Origin: a virus
DNA length: 64,000 nucleotides
Strand: one strand, 5' to 3'
IMG/VR virus record: IMGVR_UViG_3300025154_000069
Span: 15,080-79,079 of that record
Under the pieces are notes generated by a model. It saw only the letters and a list, made by a program, of their open reading frames with translations, searched no databases and was not told the DNA's origin. Both the position numbers and the translations under genes were made by a program. Positions 2,563-50,006 of this stretch are shown piece after piece; the stretch's first letter is position 1, and the number at the start of each line of letters is the position of its first letter.

Positions 2563-2947
2563 CAGTTACAAAACTGTTGACTTGTTCTTTCCTTCCTTCA
2601 CAGGTAAGGATTCCGAATCGTCATTTTTTGGTGACAATATTAAGAATTGGAACGGGAAGCTTACGCTGAAATGTTACTATGAAAAAAACATAAGCCCTAA
2701 GAAAAGAGAGAAGTTTGGTATAGCTGACGAAATATCGGCTATTGTTTATGTTTCTCCAAAGGAGTTATACGAAAAAACGGGGAAGTACAGGCTTTCTAAC
2801 CTGATTATGAAGAAAGCAACGGGTATAAAGGTTACATTTGACAGCCGTAATTATTCACTTGAAGAGATCATCGACAAAGAGAACACGGATAATGAGTCCT
2901 CAGAGTTTTCAATCGGTATTGAACTAAGACTAAAACAGGTTCCATAA
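2498..2947 (+). CDS. Putative head closure/stopper protein
   Basis: Beta-rich, about 150 aa, REKFGI motif; neck position. Confidence 0.45.
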   Translation: MRTITKTKIRSYQGLFLSRIDNSYKTVDLFFPSFTGKDSESSFFGDNIKNWNGKLTLKCYYEKNISPKKREKFGIADEISAIVYVSPKELYEKTGKYRLSNLIMKKATGIKVTFDSRNYSLEEIIDKENTDNESSEFSIGIELRLKQVP

Positions 2948-3408
2948 TGCACAGAATGACGGTCAATAAGGTAGGTAAGTATAAACCATTCATATTTTTT
3001 GAGTTGTTTAAAAACACCATGCGCCAAAGACTGCCTAAATTTGCTGCCGAAAAGTTTAAGGGTTTGCTACTTGATAACATCGACTCAAACAAATTCGGGT
3101 TCAAGTTGTCTGATAGGTGGCTTGCCTACAAAAAATTGCGTGGTTGGGATCAGCGACCGTTTATTGCCGAAGGTCATTATGTGGATGCAATATCTGTGTT
3201 CCACTATAACGGACACCTTACCATAGGGTTTAAGAAATCGACAAGGCATCCGAGGAGTAAGATGATGATGTATGAGGTTGCTCAAATATTGGAGTTTGGT
3301 AGATTAGATCAGGGAATACCTGCAAGACCGTTGTGGCGGTATACGGCAGAGGAATTTTTTAAACGGTTCCCAGAGTATATAAAAGAAATTTTGCCGAGAA
3401 ATGAATAA
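2947..3408 (+). CDS. Neck/tail-completion protein (HK97 gp10-like)
   Basis: AQILEFG...IPARPLWR C-terminal motif. Confidence 0.65.
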   Translation: MHRMTVNKVGKYKPFIFFELFKNTMRQRLPKFAAEKFKGLLLDNIDSNKFGFKLSDRWLAYKKLRGWDQRPFIAEGHYVDAISVFHYNGHLTIGFKKSTRHPRSKMMMYEVAQILEFGRLDQGIPARPLWRYTAEEFFKRFPEYIKEILPRNE

Positions 3409-4078
3409 ACTTGAATCCATAAGAGAGGTTATCTATGAGTTCTCATCTCAGTTCTTATCAAAGGCAGTTCAAAAAGCCTTTCAAGATACGGGGGAAACGA
3501 GGCCGTTTATAGCTATGACCGATTACAGGGGAACGCTTAAACAGGTTTTGGTTCGCTACTACAAGAAGGGGGATGAGTTCAATACTGAGGATGATTACAA
3601 CTACTACCCGGTTATCTCTATTCAAGACTTTGCTCCCGACTATGACAAGAGTAGGGGTTTTGGTGTTGATACCATTGATGGTGATTATGTAGAGGAAAAT
3701 GGAATAGTTATATCCGGAGATTTAATTTCCCTACCGATTCCTTACAACTTTAAGTTTCAAATTTCTTTTGCGGGTAATACTCAGGCCGACTACGATATGT
3801 TTGAAACGTGGTTCCATAACAACTTTAGCACATTTAACGGTGCGTGTTTCACGTTTAAGACAGATGTTATTGTTAATTACACCTACAAGAATTTACCCGG
3901 GGGAGAGAGAAACGACAACAAGTTTGAGAGCATAAAAGAGTTTAATTTGAATACTTGGATTTGGTTTAAGGTTAATGTTACCAATACCGAGGACATCATT
4001 CAAACCATTAAGTTTGTTCTTAAACAGCAAGAGGAAACAACAGGGGAGGAATTTTATTTACAAATTCCGGGTGATTAG
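3401..4078 (+). CDS. Putative tail terminator
   Basis: YPVISI and PIPYNFKFQISF motifs; upstream of the sheath gene. Confidence 0.55.
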   Translation: MNKLESIREVIYEFSSQFLSKAVQKAFQDTGETRPFIAMTDYRGTLKQVLVRYYKKGDEFNTEDDYNYYPVISIQDFAPDYDKSRGFGVDTIDGDYVEENGIVISGDLISLPIPYNFKFQISFAGNTQADYDMFETWFHNNFSTFNGACFTFKTDVIVNYTYKNLPGGERNDNKFESIKEFNLNTWIWFKVNVTNTEDIIQTIKFVLKQQEETTGEEFYLQIPGD

Positions 4079-42948: not shown

Positions 42949-43580
42949 AAAATTTTTGGAGAACGATTATCTTTATCTCATTAGGTGTTCACTTAGCCCT
43001 TTCTAACGCCAAGGTACTTTATAACCTTGACACAGGGATAAAGAACTTCACCGACATTCAAAACATAAATGTGTTCTTATCCATATTCTTTGCTATAAGT
43101 TATGCAATAAGCACATTATACCTAATAAATAAATCGGACAGGATTTGGCTGATAATTGTTTTTGCTGCACTCGATGGTATTCTTGTAGCACTTTGGTATA
43201 TTAACATAATAGAGGGAGTAACTTTTACTATTGTCGGAGGCTCGTTTTATGCGGTTTACACGTTTTTGATACTGATAGGAATCGGGGTGTTAAATGATAA
43301 AAATTCAGTAAGGAGTGAGTTACACTTAGTAATGGATAGTAACAAAGAGTTAATAAAAGTTAATGAATCATTAGCTAAAAAGAACGAGGAATTGATTGAT
43401 ATTGCTAAGGGTATGGCATCCGGGTATGTATTTTATATCAAATGGCGGTTTAACAAATCTATCAATGATGAGAATATAAAAATGGCCGAAGAATTGTTTG
43501 AGTCGGTTGATAAAAATTTTAACTTTACAGAATACACGACTGAGAATTTTAATCAAATTAAAAGTTTATTACATGGGTAG
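42945..43580 (+). CDS. Membrane protein with about four TMs and a coiled-coil tail
   Basis: Hydrophobic segments followed by a heptad pattern. Confidence 0.6.
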   Translation: MKNFWRTIIFISLGVHLALSNAKVLYNLDTGIKNFTDIQNINVFLSIFFAISYAISTLYLINKSDRIWLIIVFAALDGILVALWYINIIEGVTFTIVGGSFYAVYTFLILIGIGVLNDKNSVRSELHLVMDSNKELIKVNESLAKKNEELIDIAKGMASGYVFYIKWRFNKSINDENIKMAEELFESVDKNFNFTEYTTENFNQIKSLLHG

Positions 43581-44367
43581 TTTAGCAAATTTATTGAAAC
43601 CGGAAAGACTTCATGAGGTTCCTTTGTCACTTAACACCAAAGATGTTGACAGGAGATTGGAGAATGCAGAAACAGTGATGTTGTTTAACAGGATATTATC
43701 TAATCCGAAGAGGGTATCTAAATCTCTTCATCCGTCAGAGGTCAGCAACCCGTACCAAAAGCCCTGCAACCTCAGATTTTATTATGATCTTACGGGGGCA
43801 GAGGTTAATAAATTGTTTGTTTCTGATGCTTCGGTGAACAATCAGCTTCAAATCATATTCGACACCGGAACACTTTTACACCTATACACCCAAGCAACTT
43901 TGTATGAACAAGGTTATCTGGAGGCATTTGAGGTTCCTTGTTCGGAGCCGGGAATACTTACCGAAGGGATGGCTGACGGAGTGTTTAATCCGGGTGTGCT
44001 CGACATACCAAAAGGAAAGAAAGCGGTGTACGAGTTTAAGACTATCGGAGATAACGGTTTTAGAAATCTGAGGGGAGCACCAAAGAAGGAGCATGTTGGT
44101 CAAGCAAGTATCTATGCAGACATATTGGGGATAGACTTGATCTATTTTCTGTATATGAACAAGAATACTTCTGAAACCAATAGTTTTCTGGTTCCTGTCG
44201 ACAAAAAATTCATTGAAAAATATAGAGAGCTCGCTAAGTATTTGCGAGACCTTATTAAGAGAAACACATTAAAGAAGGTTAAAACTTTTCCGGACAGAAT
44301 ATGCAAAACAAAAAAGGACGGGGAAGCAATTAATTGTAGATTTTCGGACATTTGTTTTAAACAATAA
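43573..44367 (+). CDS. Cas4-like PD-(D/E)xK exonuclease
   Basis: HPSE, GTLLH, GMADG, YEFKT, QASIY; 1+3 Cys (C...C...CRFSDIC). Confidence 0.8.
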   Translation: MGSLANLLKPERLHEVPLSLNTKDVDRRLENAETVMLFNRILSNPKRVSKSLHPSEVSNPYQKPCNLRFYYDLTGAEVNKLFVSDASVNNQLQIIFDTGTLLHLYTQATLYEQGYLEAFEVPCSEPGILTEGMADGVFNPGVLDIPKGKKAVYEFKTIGDNGFRNLRGAPKKEHVGQASIYADILGIDLIYFLYMNKNTSETNSFLVPVDKKFIEKYRELAKYLRDLIKRNTLKKVKTFPDRICKTKKDGEAINCRFSDICFKQ

Positions 44368-45060: not shown

Positions 45061-45549
45061 GTGGAAAAGAAAACTACAAATAGGCGAACATGGAAAAACT
45101 TCGAGACCGAGGTTGCCAAGATGTTTGGAACGAGCAGAACACCTCTTAGCGGTGCGGTTCAAAGTTTAACAAGAGCAGATACTCTCCACGCTAAATTGTT
45201 TTTTGAGTGTAAGCTCAGGAATGAAGATCACCCTTTTGTTATTTTACACAAGATTTTTTCCAACCATAATAAGACCGTTATAGCCTGTGATAGCCTTTTA
45301 ATTATGCACGATTCGGTGTTTGATGAGTTATACAGAACTAAGCTTACGGTAAAAAAGATTAGGCTAACACACAAAATTGTATATAAGAATTTAAAAAGTA
45401 TTGTAACTTTGTACGACAAAACAAGAGAAAAGGCAGAAATTGAGAAGAAAATACCGGTAGTTGCCATAAAGATTAAAAGCAAAAGGGGGTTCTTCTTGGG
45501 GTTTGACCTTAAAGACTATCAAGAAATTTTAGACTACTATGGAGAATAA
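45061..45549 (+). CDS. PD-(D/E)xK resolvase-like nuclease
   Basis: WKNFETEVA...RTPLSG...AD......ECKLR. Confidence 0.7.
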   Translation: MEKKTTNRRTWKNFETEVAKMFGTSRTPLSGAVQSLTRADTLHAKLFFECKLRNEDHPFVILHKIFSNHNKTVIACDSLLIMHDSVFDELYRTKLTVKKIRLTHKIVYKNLKSIVTLYDKTREKAEIEKKIPVVAIKIKSKRGFFLGFDLKDYQEILDYYGE

Positions 45550-45835
45550 AAGCAGCATTTTGTTTGTAAAAAGTACAACGCCAACCAAACAGTTAGCATC
45601 CTCGATCGTATTGAAATATGAATCGGAAGGAGCTAAGGTAATCGTTTTACGGTCTATTGGAGCCGGGAGCATAGCACAGTGTACTTATGGAATCCTTGTC
45701 GCAAAGGGAATACTCGAAAAAAAGGGAAAATCGGTGTCGATGGATTTCAAGTATGTCGATGTTATAAATACCCGGGAAAACAAAGATACAAAGCCGAAAA
45801 TAACTGCGGTGGAGTATACGGTCTCCGTATATTAA
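45539..45835 (+). CDS. spoVS: SpoVS-like (Alba-fold) nucleic-acid-binding protein
   Basis: LFVKSTT..KQLASSI...LRSIGAGSIAQ...I.VAKG matches the SpoVS IGAGA.NQ...IARG pattern. Confidence 0.75.
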   Translation: MENKSSILFVKSTTPTKQLASSIVLKYESEGAKVIVLRSIGAGSIAQCTYGILVAKGILEKKGKSVSMDFKYVDVINTRENKDTKPKITAVEYTVSVY

Positions 45836-45865: not shown

Positions 45866-46255
45866 ATGTTAGAAGTTAAGATTATTCCTAAAAGGAGTGA
45901 ATCCTTTAAGTTAATTTATGTTGAAGGAGAAATATTGAAGCTTTTCGGTGAGAGGATAAAGGGTTATTTTTTAATTGACACGGGAGCCACACTATCCATT
46001 ATACACAGTAATTATTCGGACTTCCTTAGAGATACAGAATCAATAACGCTTGTAGGTGTTACAGGACAGAAAAAAACCAAGCATGGAATACTTGATATTG
46101 AGATCGGGGGTAGTAAATTTACCATAATGAATGCGGTTTCTTCTGACTTTAAACCTATGAAAAAGGGTACGTACTTAGGCATATTGGGCTTAGATTTCCT
46201 TATAGAAAATAGCTGTACTATAAATTTAGTTGAAAATATTTTGCATATTAATTAA
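45866..46255 (+). CDS. Retropepsin-like aspartic protease
   Basis: FLIDTGAT, flap GVTG, GILGLDFL. Confidence 0.9.
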   Translation: MLEVKIIPKRSESFKLIYVEGEILKLFGERIKGYFLIDTGATLSIIHSNYSDFLRDTESITLVGVTGQKKTKHGILDIEIGGSKFTIMNAVSSDFKPMKKGTYLGILGLDFLIENSCTINLVENILHIN

Positions 46256-46270
46256 AAGGTGTTATCTTTG
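46240..46270 (+). promoter_or_regulatory. Complete Bacteroidota promoter (TTTG-19 nt-TATCTTTG)
   Basis: -33 TTTG at 46240 and -7 box at 46263. Confidence 0.7.
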
Positions 46271-46327
46271 TTTCAACTAAAGTATACTACATGTTGTATT
46301 TTTAAAAAGGTTTAAAATTTTATAGCT

Positions 46328-46447
46328 ATGAAAAAGACCATCGTTTTAGGTGTGGGCGCATTAGCCAAATCTGCAATTTCAAGAACAAGAAGTTTGGTTC
46401 AAAGATCAAATGCATTTAACGCCACATTAGCCGGAGGCGGAAGATAA
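46328..46447 (+). CDS. 39-aa basic peptide MKKTIVLGVGALAKSAISRTRSLVQRSNAFNATLAGGGR
   Basis: Below the ORF-track cutoff; has its own promoter and terminator; A at -3 region and A-rich leader. Confidence 0.75.
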   Translation: MKKTIVLGVGALAKSAISRTRSLVQRSNAFNATLAGGGR

Positions 46448-46473
46448 GTACCCTCCAAACTAATCGCACATAC

Positions 46474-46503
46474 TAAGCACCTATAATCAGGTGCTTATTT
46501 TTT
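46474..46503 (+). terminator. Intrinsic terminator
   Basis: TAAGCACCT-ATAATC-AGGTGCTTA plus TTTTT. Confidence 0.8.
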
Positions 46504-46531: not shown

Positions 46532-49306
46532 ATGACTTCATATGAAGATAAATTCGTTCCTTTTTTAGCAGTAACCCCAAACAAGCAATTTTTCAATTTA
46601 TTTCAAAGAGCCGGGGTTAAGAATATCCTTATTTCCTACTACTACATAAAAAAGAATCCAAGTCTTGCAAGAGATTTTATGGATTATGCTTCCTCGGTTG
46701 GTGGACTTGTTATGGTTGACTCCGGGGTTTTTACTTTATATGCCGAGAAAAAGGTGAGGGAGGATGATGAGTACCTTAAATTCCTTGAAGAGTATGTTAG
46801 GTTCCTACACACAGATAAGAACAGAATTTTCTCTGCCTGTAACTTCGATATGGATATACTTTTCGGGTATGATAAAATAGATAAATGGAACGAAAAATTC
46901 TTTGAGCCGTTAGAAGGGGATATTAACATCATATATGCGGTGCATCCGATTGGCAACCACAACCCGCTAACACGATTTAAGGAATACTCAGAAAAATATA
47001 AGTATTTAGCTATAAACGAGGATTTAACCAAATATGCACAAAGTATTTATCAGTTAGCTAAGAGAACGGGAACCAATATACATGGGTTAGCATGGACTAA
47101 ACCTACTTATTTAAAGCAGTACCCATTCTTCTCGGTCGATAGTGTTACAGGAGATTCTGTTGTAGACATTCAAATTGATGGGGTATCTATGAGTATACCT
47201 ATTGAAGAGTTATATAGGTTTTTTTCTCCAACAGCAGTAGAAAATTCTAAGGGTCAATTTGTGACTAATCCGGACAATGTAAATGCTTTAACCCTAAATA
47301 AAGACAATAAACTTATATGGTCTAAACTTTCCGGTGTTCTTATGCATGCAGTAAAAAAAGAGATGTTTAAAATCACCTTGGAGGGAAATATAAGTATTGA
47401 TGTAACCTCTGACCACTCTTTAATTTCTATGGATAAAGATGGGTTACTTTATGAACTTAAACCCAACAGCTTAACTACTGATAGTTTTTTGCTGTATAAA
47501 AAATTTTCCCCCAATAAAAATAGCGATGTTCCTTTCATAGATTTTACAATAGACCCTAAAAAATACAGTCACATAGCTGGGGAGCACAGAGTTGTTCTCG
47601 ATGAGATATTTCTTAATTTTCTTGGGTATTGGGTTGGAAATGGGCATTTTGATAAAGGAAATATTTGTATTTCCGGGTATCAGTATTCGGAGGTCGCCAA
47701 AATTATTGAGCGAATAGCAGAGAGATATGAAAGAACGGTTAACATAAGGGATAATGGTATAGATTGCTATATAAGCTGTACTTGGTTAGCAACCCTTATG
47801 CGGCATATGGGATTTTTAAGTGGTTCAGCTAACAAAAGTATTCCAAACATTATTTTTACTTTATCTACCAAACAAATTTGTTGGTTTTTAAAGGGATATT
47901 ATTCTGCTGATGGTAGTGGCTATTCTGCAAGTTGTTCAACAATATCTAAATCTTTATCTCTTGATTTGTCCACTATTTTAAGTAACTTAGGGATAATATT
48001 CAGCCTAAGTAAAAAAGAGGGTAAGATAGGCGGGTATAGTAGTGGAAAAAGCACTCTATACACTATAAGTATAGTAGACACCAATAGTAAAAAGGTATTC
48101 TTAGAAAAAATAGGCTTCCTACAGGATTACAAGACAAAGATTATTGGGGATGAGATAGCAAAAAGGGTGGGTAAGAATCAGGTATGGAGTAAAAAATTAG
48201 GTGTTCCCAAGGTACTATCTCTTAAAGGCAATATAAAGCATAAAAAGTATTCTGCATCAATTAGCTCTATAAAAGGTTGGAGAATAAATAGAGAAAATAA
48301 CAGAGGATTTTTTTCTGATAAAGTGTTGGACTCAGATGTTCTATTTCTTAAAGTAGTAGCTATTGATAAGTATGTTCCCGATGATGATATATTGGTATAT
48401 GATCTTTGTGTTCCGGAGACAGAAAACTTTATAGCTAACGGTGTTGTAGTGCATAACAGCTCTTCTTGGGTAGGCTATCAAAAGTACGGCTCTACTGTTT
48501 ACTTTGATGGGAAGGAGTTTTATCAGTATGATAACAAGAAAAAAGATATACGGAAGAGCTTGCGCCCATACTGTATTAAGTATGGTGTTAAATTTTATGA
48601 GTATGTTAATGAAAAAGATGAAAAGACGGGGGCGCACAATGATGGCGAAGGATTGACGTTTTCTATAAAAAGTTGGCTTGAAGTGTTGGAATCTATCAAA
48701 AAAATTGCTAATTTTAAACTAAAAACAAAAATCAAGGACATGATAAAGAATGATAAGCTCGTTGAATCCGTCACAGACTCGGAAGAGGATGATGAAGAAG
48801 GTATGAGCCTGAGTGAGGCGGTTGCCACTACAGAAAGCGGTGCAGCAGCTTATGAGTTGGTTATAGCAAAAGATGTAATTTCTTATGACAATATTCCAAA
48901 TACGCATAAGAACATTATGCTATGTAATTCCTGCATGGTTTCAGATGTATGTCCGTTCAAGGTTGAAAATTCCACATGCAGAATAGATTTTAATCCCACG
49001 AATGACAGCTTAAAAGACCCGTTTACTTTGTTAGACTACATTATCGAAAAGCAGACAGAGAGGGTAAACAGAACTTTGTTCATGGAGAAACTCGAAGGGG
49101 GTTCAACGAATAGAGCTTATACTTCTGAATTAAGATTTTTGGAAGAGTTGCTAACTACCAAGGCCGATCTAATTATTAAAACAAAAACCAAGTCTATAAG
49201 GCTTACGCAGTCTTTAGAGGTTACTGAAATTAATGCCGAATCGGGGGAAAAATCTCAATCTGGTGGTGGGTTTGTTCAAATGTTACAAAACATGCTAAAT
49301 AAATAA
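46532..49306 (+). CDS. DpdA-like (TGT-fold) DNA 7-deazaguanine transglycosylase, intein-split, with C-terminal Cys4 and helical domain
   Basis: ILISY, VDSGVFT, NFD, IHGL; FSVD|SSSW after splicing; adjacent to queC, queD, queE. Confidence 0.8.
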   Translation: MTSYEDKFVPFLAVTPNKQFFNLFQRAGVKNILISYYYIKKNPSLARDFMDYASSVGGLVMVDSGVFTLYAEKKVREDDEYLKFLEEYVRFLHTDKNRIFSACNFDMDILFGYDKIDKWNEKFFEPLEGDINIIYAVHPIGNHNPLTRFKEYSEKYKYLAINEDLTKYAQSIYQLAKRTGTNIHGLAWTKPTYLKQYPFFSVDSVTGDSVVDIQIDGVSMSIPIEELYRFFSPTAVENSKGQFVTNPDNVNALTLNKDNKLIWSKLSGVLMHAVKKEMFKITLEGNISIDVTSDHSLISMDKDGLLYELKPNSLTTDSFLLYKKFSPNKNSDVPFIDFTIDPKKYSHIAGEHRVVLDEIFLNFLGYWVGNGHFDKGNICISGYQYSEVAKIIERIAERYERTVNIRDNGIDCYISCTWLATLMRHMGFLSGSANKSIPNIIFTLSTKQICWFLKGYYSADGSGYSASCSTISKSLSLDLSTILSNLGIIFSLSKKEGKIGGYSSGKSTLYTISIVDTNSKKVFLEKIGFLQDYKTKIIGDEIAKRVGKNQVWSKKLGVPKVLSLKGNIKHKKYSASISSIKGWRINRENNRGFFSDKVLDSDVLFLKVVAIDKYVPDDDILVYDLCVPETENFIANGVVVHNSSSWVGYQKYGSTVYFDGKEFYQYDNKKKDIRKSLRPYCIKYGVKFYEYVNEKDEKTGAHNDGEGLTFSIKSWLEVLESIKKIANFKLKTKIKDMIKNDKLVESVTDSEEDDEEGMSLSEAVATTESGAAAYELVIAKDVISYDNIPNTHKNIMLCNSCMVSDVCPFKVENSTCRIDFNPTNDSLKDPFTLLDYIIEKQTERVNRTLFMEKLEGGSTNRAYTSELRFLEELLTTKADLIIKTKTKSIRLTQSLEVTEINAESGEKSQSGGGFVQMLQNMLNK
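47141..48457 (+). mobile_element. Intein with LAGLIDADG homing endonuclease (439 aa)
   Basis: Starts SVTGDS; block B VTSDHSL; FLGYWVGNG and FLKGYYSADG; VYDL...NFIANGVVVHN then +1 Ser. Confidence 0.92.
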
Positions 49307-49310
49307 ACTA

Positions 49311-50006
49311 ATGGAAAAAGAATACAAGGGTAAAACAGTAGTCCTGCTATCAGGAGGCCAAGATAGTACAACAGCACTATTACAAGCACTTGATGAAGGA
49401 TTTTTGGCACATGCGGTTATTATTGACTATGGCCAAAAACATTCAGTTGAAATATCAAAAGCTATTGAAATTTGTAAGGAGATAGCTGTTGATTTTACGG
49501 TAGTCAATGTAAGTAGAATCTTATCGGTTCTTAACACTGCACTAACTAATGATAGCATAGATGTCTCAGAAGTTGGGGATAACGGGCTCCCAAAAACATT
49601 TGTTCCTAACAGAAATCACTTATTCATACTCATAGCCGATATGATTGCTCAGAGCAAAGGATTTGATTCGGTAACTATAGGTGTTAGTGCAGTTGATTAT
49701 TCTGGCTATCCGGATTGCAGACCTGAGTTTATAGATGCTATGTCAAAGGCTTTATACGAGGGTAACTTGAAAGAGAGGAAGATAAGAACCCCACTTATTA
49801 AACTGTCGAAAGCCGAGACTTTTAAGCTTGCTGACGATTTGTTTGAGCTCGATTTTATCCTTGAGAATACACATACGTGTTATAATGGCGACAGATTACA
49901 CAGAAATATTTGGGGATATGGGTGTGGTGAATGTCCTGCTTGTAAGCTTAGAGAAAAGGGGTTCTATGAGTTCTTATTAATGAAGGAAAAGGATGAGACT
50001 GTCTAA
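49311..50006 (+). CDS. queC: 7-cyano-7-deazaguanine (preQ0) synthase
   Basis: SGGQDS, YGQKH, FVPNRN, YPDCR, TCY, CGECPAC. Confidence 0.95.
   Translation: MEKEYKGKTVVLLSGGQDSTTALLQALDEGFLAHAVIIDYGQKHSVEISKAIEICKEIAVDFTVVNVSRILSVLNTALTNDSIDVSEVGDNGLPKTFVPNRNHLFILIADMIAQSKGFDSVTIGVSAVDYSGYPDCRPEFIDAMSKALYEGNLKERKIRTPLIKLSKAETFKLADDLFELDFILENTHTCYNGDRLHRNIWGYGCGECPACKLREKGFYEFLLMKEKDETV

Follow-up and report, generated by a model that had tools for sequence, protein, structure and literature searches.

A small basic gene upstream of dpdA

This work deals with a 64,000-nucleotide (nt) stretch of viral DNA from IMG/VR record IMGVR_UViG_3300025154_000069, hereafter the window, and within it with a 39-codon open reading frame (ORF) that lies between a gene for a retropepsin-like aspartic protease and a gene for a DNA transglycosylase of the DpdA type, related to tRNA-guanine transglycosylases (TGT). 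A first-pass annotation, made from the letters of the DNA, had seen here a stand-alone gene for a basic peptide, taken to be abundant and processed, flanked by an aspartic protease and a deazaguanine cluster. The sequence elements were all recovered: the ORF is present at 46328-46447 with the same translation and no acidic residues, the gene before it matches the Pfam family RVP and carries a DTGA motif, and dpdA and queC follow downstream. As detailed below, a small basic ORF is found at the same place in nearly all the related phages that could be assessed, which makes it very probable that this ORF is a genuine gene, and we consider it likely that it is translated and functional.

The predicted peptide has 39 amino acids (aa), of which seven are basic (three Lys and four Arg, 18% Lys/Arg) and none is Asp or Glu. 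It starts with M-K-K, followed by a short hydrophobic run up to a Leu and then by G-V-G-A; the hydrophobic stretch covers about 10 residues, the Kyte-Doolittle value taken over 11 residues does not exceed 1.7, and the peptide has a modest hydrophobic moment of at most 0.55. A single-sequence AlphaFold2 (AF2) model gives one helix at residues 9-36 with a predicted local distance difference test (pLDDT) score of 83, which is weak evidence. The exact peptide had already been called as a protein in JGI/IMG, on two contigs. The GC content of the ORF is 0.41, against 0.38 in the surrounding DNA, and an ORF of 39 codons in AT-rich DNA is possible by chance alone, in such a way that it is the comparison with the relatives, and not the window itself, that lifts this ORF above chance.

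A conserved slot in related phages

Searches with the peptide itself were uninformative. A collection of 50,697 phage records contained no DNA match to the ORF region, and HMMER against 1.84 billion representatives returned only the peptide itself and a spurious tandem acyl-carrier repeat protein; there was no match in Pfam, PHROGs or the ESM Atlas, and tblastn in the phage collection gave only chance matches to Lactococcus tape-measure proteins (E 0.4 or worse). Ten members of the family described below likewise had no Pfam match at E values up to 1 and no PHROG match, the Hc1-type basic families included.

The family was found through its neighbours. A tblastn search with DpdA led to Bacteroides phage BS162P1, which is an isolate, and to a gut "Bacteriophage sp." record. 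In each of the two, a SpoVS-like gene is separated from a QueC-like/DpdA pair by a very small and strongly basic ORF; the BS162P1 counterpart of the window ORF is annotated as a hypothetical coding sequence, with a predicted product of 36 aa. Further loci (designated by L numbers) were collected with three alignments, of SpoVS-like proteins (A1), of DpdA N-exteins (A2) and, in metagenomes, of resolvase-like proteins (A6); a first metagenome scan with a two-sequence DpdA alignment had given no matches. The usual gene order in these loci is Cas4-like, p169, resolvase-like, SpoVS-like, small basic ORF, QueC-like, DpdA and Cys-rich protein. The constant neighbours of the slot across loci are the SpoVS-like gene upstream and the DpdA/TGT-like gene downstream.

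The slot was scored in the 86 loci that had the SpoVS-like gene and downstream sequence. An automatic filter found the small ORF in 83 of them; in L079 it lies further downstream, behind extra genes, and was counted as present, and in L077 the sequence stops before the slot, so this locus is not assessable. The remaining locus, L088, has AGG where the start ATG is expected and was counted as lacking the ORF. The small basic ORF is thus present between the SpoVS-like gene (with or without a retropepsin gene) and the QueC-like/dpdA genes in 84 of the 85 assessable loci, a set with many near-duplicates and some contigs fetched twice that amounts to around 45 distinct peptides and roughly a dozen DpdA lineages. 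The slot ORFs are monocistronic and 30-70 codons long, with 17-35% Lys/Arg and almost no Asp/Glu, and the phages that carry them form a group with genomes of 70-90 kb, Bacteroidota-type promoters and 7-deazaguanine pathways.

By DpdA, the closest relatives of the window are L021 (49% identity) and L079, and both have a basic ORF, of 70 and 67 aa respectively, between the retropepsin gene and dpdA. No similarity could be detected between these two proteins, and the window peptide showed no similarity to either by profile-profile comparison or BLAST, so that the orthology is positional only. An ungapped N-terminal motif is common to the window peptide and those of L055 and L061, namely M-K-(K/N), three hydrophobic residues, Leu and (G/T)-(V/T)-(G/S)-(A/G), with a hydrophobic stretch of only four residues in L055 and L061. 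Because it shares with the family the slot and the architecture, the complete lack of acidic residues, this N-terminal motif and the position of a short post-stop motif, CCCTCCAAA, the window unit appears to be homologous to the others, and the window ORF is very probably, as judged from these sequences, the local member of a fast-evolving family of tiny, acid-free basic proteins.

Promoter, leader and terminator

The Bacteroidota-type promoter that the first-pass annotation had placed before the ORF, TTTG and TATCTTTG separated by 19 nt, was found at that position. The pattern is not enriched in the window, where 5 matches were counted against 2.8 expected, and at least 5 matches occurred in 20 of 100 shuffles. 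The terminator, which had been called strong, is present, although its strength is only moderate, with four G-C pairs in a 9-bp stem. Within the predicted 5' leader there is also a mini-ORF of four codons on the plus strand (46291-46305; ATG TTG TAT TTT TAA, encoding M-L-Y-F-stop).

The same layout is kept in the relatives. TAnnTTTG was found at -65 to -81 from the ATG in 30 of 33 distinct IMG/VR relatives, and at -44 in L021 and -94 in L055; TTTG or TTG is usual around 20 nt further upstream (about -33). In all 33, a strong hairpin lies about 16-50 nt past the stop codon and runs into T-rich sequence, which in most of them is an uninterrupted run of T. In the window, and likewise in the distant clade whose peptides begin with MGTTR (L022:2741-2749 and sister loci), the CCCTCCAAA motif follows the small ORF at 1-3 nt past its stop codon; among the loci examined it is not at this position in the units of other clades, and chance alone would give around one copy in 64 kb. 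The claim of a stand-alone gene is therefore borne out by the conservation of promoter, ORF and terminator, and the peptide gene appears to be its own transcription unit, with a host-type promoter, a leader of about 60 nt and an intrinsic terminator, which is probably strongly expressed.

Composition and selection on the protein

The peptides are not alignable between clades, and what they have in common is their composition. Pooled over the 45 distinct peptides, Gly makes up 24% of the residues, Ala 21%, Arg 18%, Thr 11% and Lys 8.5%, and Asp and Glu together 0.4%; acidic residues are absent from 40 of the 45, and hydrophobic residues from most. Many are built of short repeats, of the types A-K-K, K-K-A-P-A, K-P, R-R-G-G, A-P-A-R-G-G-R-R and R-R-T-A-T-R-G-G. 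The Lys-rich peptides are encoded by genes of 33-37% GC and the Arg/Gly/Ala-rich ones by genes of 50-70% GC, in phage genomes of 34-49% GC (36-49% for the Arg/Gly/Ala-rich versions), and this occurrence of Lys-rich and Arg-rich versions at differing GC contents implies that it is the charge, and not the base composition, that is conserved.

Signs of selection were also sought in closer comparisons. In seven moderately diverged pairs (synonymous divergence, pS, of 0.22-0.72), the ratio of non-synonymous to synonymous divergence (pN/pS) was 0.27-0.46, values which come from protein-guided alignments of low-complexity sequence and are biased downward. The repeat-number variants of one clade, of 42-58 aa, are all in frame, and the 70-aa protein of L021 has a homologue of equal length and 70% identity on another contig. 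Taken together, these sequence comparisons indicate that the peptide ORF is protein-coding and that selection acts on the protein. Near-identical gut phages vary in the number of R-R-T-A-T-R-G-G-type repeats (L022-L035, L062-L064, L083-L091 and L123), a length polymorphism that could tune the charge of the peptide.

The retropepsin-like protease

The protein encoded upstream of the peptide ORF reaches 22.6 bits against Pfam RVP, with a gathering cut-off of 20.7, and contains L-I-D-T-G-A-T, with DTGA at residues 38-41, and the C-terminal motif I-L-G-L-D-F-L. D38, T39 and G40 are invariant in a four-sequence alignment (A3), whose profile matches the protease domain of DDI1 (E 1.5e-5), the protease of feline immunodeficiency virus and ASPRV1; the AF2 model from a four-sequence alignment had a pLDDT of 43, too poor for a fold search. 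The length of the protein is within the size of single-lobe retropepsins (around 100-130 aa), and it would putatively be active as a homodimer. A 98%-identical protease is encoded on a 78.9-kb contig.

Retropepsin genes of this type were found in only five loci (the window, L021, L079, L055 and L061). In each of them the protease gene precedes the small ORF, directly so in four of the five; in L021 the QueC-like gene is relocated, yet the adjacency of protease and peptide genes is kept. All the protease-bearing genomes encode a peptide with an N-terminal extension. A profile search for retropepsins, in which all the positive controls were found, detected none in seven genomes at least 98% complete, plus four partial ones, whose peptides are leaderless and begin with M-(A/G/P/S/T) and a basic residue. 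The presence of the protease only alongside N-terminally extended peptides fits with the processing of a precursor; no cleavage site could be derived for the peptide. The module proposed in the first-pass annotation, made up of protease, peptide and TGT/QueC, does not hold as such, as the protease is missing from most loci, including all seven of the leaderless genomes with at least 98% completeness. The conserved module is formed by the SpoVS-like gene, the peptide gene and the QueC-like/DpdA genes.

As a single query in IMG/VR the retropepsin gave no matches, and the matches to its alignment were for the most part unrelated phage retropepsins with a membrane anchor, encoded in other contexts and lacking an adjoining basic ORF. 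In such unrelated contigs, a retropepsin with an N-terminal hydrophobic segment lies between dUTPase/dCTP-deaminase-like and DNA polymerase-like genes; L066:2171-2668, L067:3324-3824, L068:3321-3830 and L071:3324-3821 are unrelated phage retropepsins with no basic ORF beside them. In L061, a 204-aa protein with a CxxCxxxCC motif is encoded between the protease and peptide genes (1364-1978), and the product of 2875-3450, between the QueC-like and DpdA genes, resembles, by eye only, a 2-oxoglutarate-Fe(II) oxygenase.

Deazaguanine genes and the wider neighbourhood

QueD and exactly one QueC-family gene were present in 10 of the 10 complete genomes tested. The QueC-family protein is canonical in the window (222 bits to Pfam QueC) and divergent in the relatives (45-74 bits to PF06508). 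A divergent QueC-like gene lies next to the peptide gene in G003, G005-G009, G012 and G014, and the modified base of these phages may differ from that of the window. The linkage of peptide and dpd genes in related phages, which the first-pass annotation had put forward as its own test, was confirmed, in such a way that dpdA and QueC-family genes are linked to the small ORF in every assessable relative; since both are family-wide, this adjacency is inseparable from a conserved gene order.

It had also been suggested that the peptide might be conjugated to a nucleobase through an N-terminal Gly. Cap9 or QatC, with a TGT-like partner, act on a flexible, Gly-rich protein N-terminus, and the known deazaguanylation reactions (Cap9/Cap10 and QatC) require Gly2 within M(G/S)G(G/S)GG (10.1101/2025.04.06.647259; PMC13082051). 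The window peptide begins with MKK and does not have this motif, and residue 2 varies among the 45 distinct peptides (Ala in 22, Gly in 10, Asn in 5, Lys in 3, Pro and Ser in 2 each and Thr in 1), with Gly2 confined to one clade. The suggestion thus finds no support in the peptides themselves. The QueC model of PADLOC matches canonical and divergent phage enzymes alike, and QatC only faintly.

The genes flanking the 39-codon ORF in the window constitute a DNA-metabolism block (Table 1). The plus strand carries nearly all the genes, the GC content is 34-40%, and no Rfam families or tRNAs were found in the window.

Table 1. Features of the window around the small basic gene; positions count from the first base of the window, except in the first row, which refers to the IMG/VR record.
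Feature	Position	Strand	Remarks
Window	15080-79079		part of a complete 79,079-bp IMG/VR record with direct terminal repeats
Cas4-domain exonuclease	43498-44367		
Holliday-junction-resolvase-like protein	45061-45549		
SpoVS-like (Alba-superfamily) protein	45539-45835	+	Pfam SpoVS, 28.4 bits (cut-off 24); phrog_35646 match
Retropepsin-like aspartic protease	45866-46255	+	129 aa; Pfam RVP match
Bacteroidota-type promoter: TTTG (-33), 19 nt, TATCTTTG (-7)	46240-46270	+	pattern match; about 57 nt 5' of the ATG
Acid-free basic peptide gene	46328-46447	+	39 codons
CCCTCCAAA motif	46451-46459	+	3 nt past the stop codon of the peptide ORF
Intrinsic terminator	46474-46503	+	9-bp stem (4 G-C pairs) and 6-nt loop at 46474-46497, then T6
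DpdA/TGT-like DNA transglycosylase, intein-split, with fused Cys-rich C-terminal domain	46532-49306	+	Intein_splicing and LAGLIDADG_3 matches
Canonical QueC	49311-50006	+	Pfam QueC, 222 bits

Both exteins of the DpdA/TGT-like protein match phrog_887. An intein is found at an identical site of DpdA, F-S-(V/S)-D|S, in several separate lineages, with close relatives without it; the bearers are L003:4896-7094, L042:3396-5594, L044:3396-5594 and the window. This distribution suggests that the intein is mobile and cycles within the phage family. The Cys-rich protein, of around 250 aa, has its own gene 3' of dpdA in most relatives (e.g., L038:4390-5145) and forms, as a fusion, the C-terminal part of DpdA itself in the window (48458-49306) and in L021 (3480-5015); PHROG 887 spans both DpdA and the Cys-rich part, implying that the fusion may be the ancestral or a common state. 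The resolvase-like protein of the clade formed by the window, L021 (1023-1616) and L079 (501-1049) has an insertion of around 60 residues in alignment A6 that is not found in the gut clades.

Proposed role and alternative explanations

The polycationic character of the family makes nucleic acid its most likely ligand. We propose that the peptide would act by charge on the phage DNA (or RNA), as a counter-ion or as a chromatin-like coat, and that it probably acts together with the adjacent SpoVS/Alba-like protein. SpoVS has an Alba-superfamily fold, and RGG motifs or tails commonly accompany Alba domains in eukaryotes (PMC11621453). In the window lineage, a short N-terminal pro-segment (M-K-K, the hydrophobic run, Leu and small residues) may be removed by the adjacent retropepsin-like protease. 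The position beside dpdA and queC would reflect a shared module of DNA handling and protection, and not chemistry on the peptide. To this whole reading, of a charge-based nucleic-acid binder that partners the SpoVS/Alba protein and is trimmed by a protease in the window lineage, we give an even chance. Of the options listed in the first-pass annotation, the protease-matured DNA-binding core peptide is the one that fits best, being supported by the polycationic composition and by the restriction of the protease to genomes with extended peptides, and weakened by the fact that the protease is not family-wide. Intracellular coating or compaction of DNA would be at least as likely as a packaged core peptide because of the host-type promoter and the position in a DNA-metabolism block.

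Several points weigh against this proposal. The gene belongs to the DNA-metabolism block, has a host-consensus promoter and is not among structural genes, which disfavours a late, packaged core peptide. Between the window peptide and its relatives no sequence similarity was detected, its orthology being by position only, and it is less basic and of far less low complexity than the peptides of the gut clades. The pN/pS values are lowered by the bias mentioned above. The co-occurrence of protease and leader may represent only one to three evolutionary events, with a poorly resolved DpdA tree, and a search for SpoVS with a basic tail found no SpoVS-polycation fusion protein, which is weak evidence. 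Finally, L088 (4280-4430, gut metagenome) has the full unit with AGG in place of the start ATG. All the sister contigs of L088 have ATG at that site; the L088 copy could be a pseudogene or use a non-canonical start, or the AGG may stem from an error in sequencing.

Among the alternatives, the window ORF could be a chance ORF or a decayed remnant, in a phage that has lost the slot gene and makes only a transcript, or nothing. No sequence homologue of the window peptide was found anywhere searched, its composition is atypical for the family, the GC content of the ORF is barely above that of its surroundings, and chance can produce 39 codons; nevertheless, an intact host-type promoter, an ATG and a terminator frame the ORF exactly as in the relatives, acidic residues are completely absent, the N-terminal motif is common to L055 and L061, and the closest relatives, L021 and L079, retain a basic ORF between retropepsin and dpdA, so we regard a remnant as unlikely. 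Read as a regulatory leader, the promoter-ORF-terminator unit would be an attenuator or a small RNA controlling read-through into dpdA/queC, with a functionless peptide. With its promoter, short ORF and intrinsic terminator directly ahead of the following gene, the unit indeed has the classic attenuator layout, and in the window no clear separate promoter is seen within the 28 nt that precede dpdA. Against this, the composition of the protein is kept from 33 to 70% GC with pN/pS below 0.5, a ribosome terminating at the stop codon, which is 16-28 nt or more ahead of the hairpin, would leave that hairpin unmelted, simple folds show no evident alternative pairing, and the codon content does not point to any single sensed amino acid, all of which makes attenuation very unlikely. 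The window version could also be a membrane-active or secreted cationic peptide, with a signal-like N-terminus and a basic helix acting on the envelope, as a lysis protein or toxin of the disruptin type; small cationic lysis peptides do exist in phages, such as gp28 of phiKT, named disruptin. The N-terminus looks like an n-region and an h-region, with A-L-A at residues 11-13, and the single predicted helix would suit such a role, but the hydrophobic run has around 10 residues in the window and four in L055 and L061, the hydrophobic moment does not exceed 0.55, the rest of the family is essentially without hydrophobic residues and no lysis genes are nearby, making this role very improbable. As a family-wide reading, a signal peptide, a transmembrane segment or an antimicrobial peptide was rejected, the hydrophobic run being 4-10 residues long and absent from most members.

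The remaining alternative is conjugation, in which 7-carboxy-7-deazaguanine, once activated by the phage QueC-family enzyme, would be joined by that enzyme to the free N-terminus of the peptide through an amide, by analogy with Cap9/QatC; the conjugate might serve as a carrier or cofactor of DpdA, as a decoy against the type IV CBASS (cyclic-oligonucleotide-based antiphage signalling system) or Qat systems of the host, or for insertion into DNA. The whole idea derives from adjacency, the peptide gene always being directly upstream of a QueC-family or a DpdA (TGT-family) gene, with the precedent of Cap9/QatC on flexible Gly-rich N-termini (10.1101/2025.04.06.647259; PMC13082051). Moreover, all the leaderless peptides have a small second residue compatible with the removal of Met, one clade begins with M-G-T-T-R followed by a Gly run, and the relatives have their single divergent QueC-like gene (45-74 bits) beside the peptide. 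Nonetheless, residue 2, where Gly is required, varies between close clades (A, G, P, S and T), and the peptide starts with MKK in the window, where QueC is canonical and not adjacent to the peptide; the sole QueC-family gene of each genome is already needed by the DNA-modification pathway, PADLOC does not separate the phage enzymes from ordinary QueC, and the polycationic charge, the strongest conserved feature, is left unexplained, so that conjugation seems to us highly improbable. Its most elaborate form, also highly improbable, would have the peptide amine acylated with 7-carboxy-7-deazaguanine, after exposure of a reactive N-terminus by the retropepsin in the window lineage, and DpdA, with a TGT fold like that of Cap10, placing the peptide-base into DNA or presenting it. 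If true, a peptide-base in DNA would amount to a hypermodification linking DNA covalently to a polycation, with neutralisation of charge and a block to nucleases, and a presented one would be a decoy that disarms deazaguanylation by the host type IV CBASS/Qat systems.

The preferred role, a polycation that binds nucleic acid, has implications for these phages as a group. Tailed phages are usually described without histone-like or protamine-like partners, a picture that a widespread polycation family in gut phages of the Bacteroides type would change. Neither Pfam nor PHROGs contains the family, which would fill a gap in the annotation of gut phages; literature searches found no description of it, no proteomic data on it and nothing on the biology of phage BS162P1, and this isolate, which has a known host (Bacteroides salyersiae), opens the family to direct tests. 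The variants coupled to a retropepsin would pair a phage aspartic protease with a candidate substrate, of which there are few cases, and the unvarying position beside QueC-family and TGT-family genes offers a low-probability link to the recently found chemistry of protein deazaguanylation.

Comparison with known systems

Among phage proteins, the nearest parallel is protein J of the Microviridae (phiX174, G4 and alpha3), a very basic peptide of around 25-38 aa that acts as a counter-ion of the genome. As the family described here, J is tiny, very basic and phage-encoded, whereas it is a late structural protein of single-stranded DNA phages, is not processed and has a hydrophobic C-terminal capsid anchor; our family, known here from its genes, belongs to the DNA metabolism of double-stranded DNA phages and has no sequence similarity to J. 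Internal peptides II and VII of T4, which derive from gp67 and gp68 by cleavage with gp21 and are associated with the packaged DNA, are a precedent in tailed phages for small peptides made by a phage protease. Unlike the present peptides, they are acidic fragments of the scaffold core, encoded in the head-gene cluster and cut by a serine prohead protease, and not stand-alone polycation genes.

The adenovirus proteins pre-mu (pX), the precursor of mu, and pVII are small polycationic genome-binding peptides whose precursors are trimmed by the viral protease, as putatively occurs in the window lineage. The differences are that adenovirus is a eukaryotic virus with a cysteine protease that works in the virion, while here the protease is a retropepsin-like aspartic one, is present in a minority of the family, and its cleavage of the peptide is putative. 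Acid-free, low-complexity basic repeats are also characteristic of Hc1 of Chlamydia, the KPAA repeats of AlgP, the tail of mycobacterial HupB, protamines and P6.9 of baculoviruses, in which Lys/Ala/Pro or Arg/Gly/Ser/Thr repeats condense DNA by charge, and the family members with AKK, KKAPA, KP and RRGG repeats are of the same character. They are, however, much shorter, phage-encoded and without a Pfam match, and the window copy is not of low complexity.

Two other systems resemble the locus in its gene partners. The Alba proteins with RGG tails of trypanosomatids, Plasmodium and plants combine an Alba fold with a basic, Arg/Gly-rich segment (PMC11621453), there in one polypeptide and here in adjacent genes, with no fusion found and a putative interaction. 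The targets of deazaguanylation, which are the cGAS/DncV-like nucleotidyltransferase (CD-NTase) of type IV CBASS, with Cap9/Cap10, and QatB, with QatC, have like our peptides a flexible N-terminus encoded beside QueC-family or TGT-family genes, but the Gly2 motif is missing from the window peptide and most relatives, and the phage enzymes are explained by DNA modification. Of the traits of viral core peptides, the family has the small size, the basic character and the near absence of acidic residues, and does not have the location with late or structural genes. Viral polycationic peptides that bind nucleic acids are known as a kind, and the family described here would be an undescribed addition to it.

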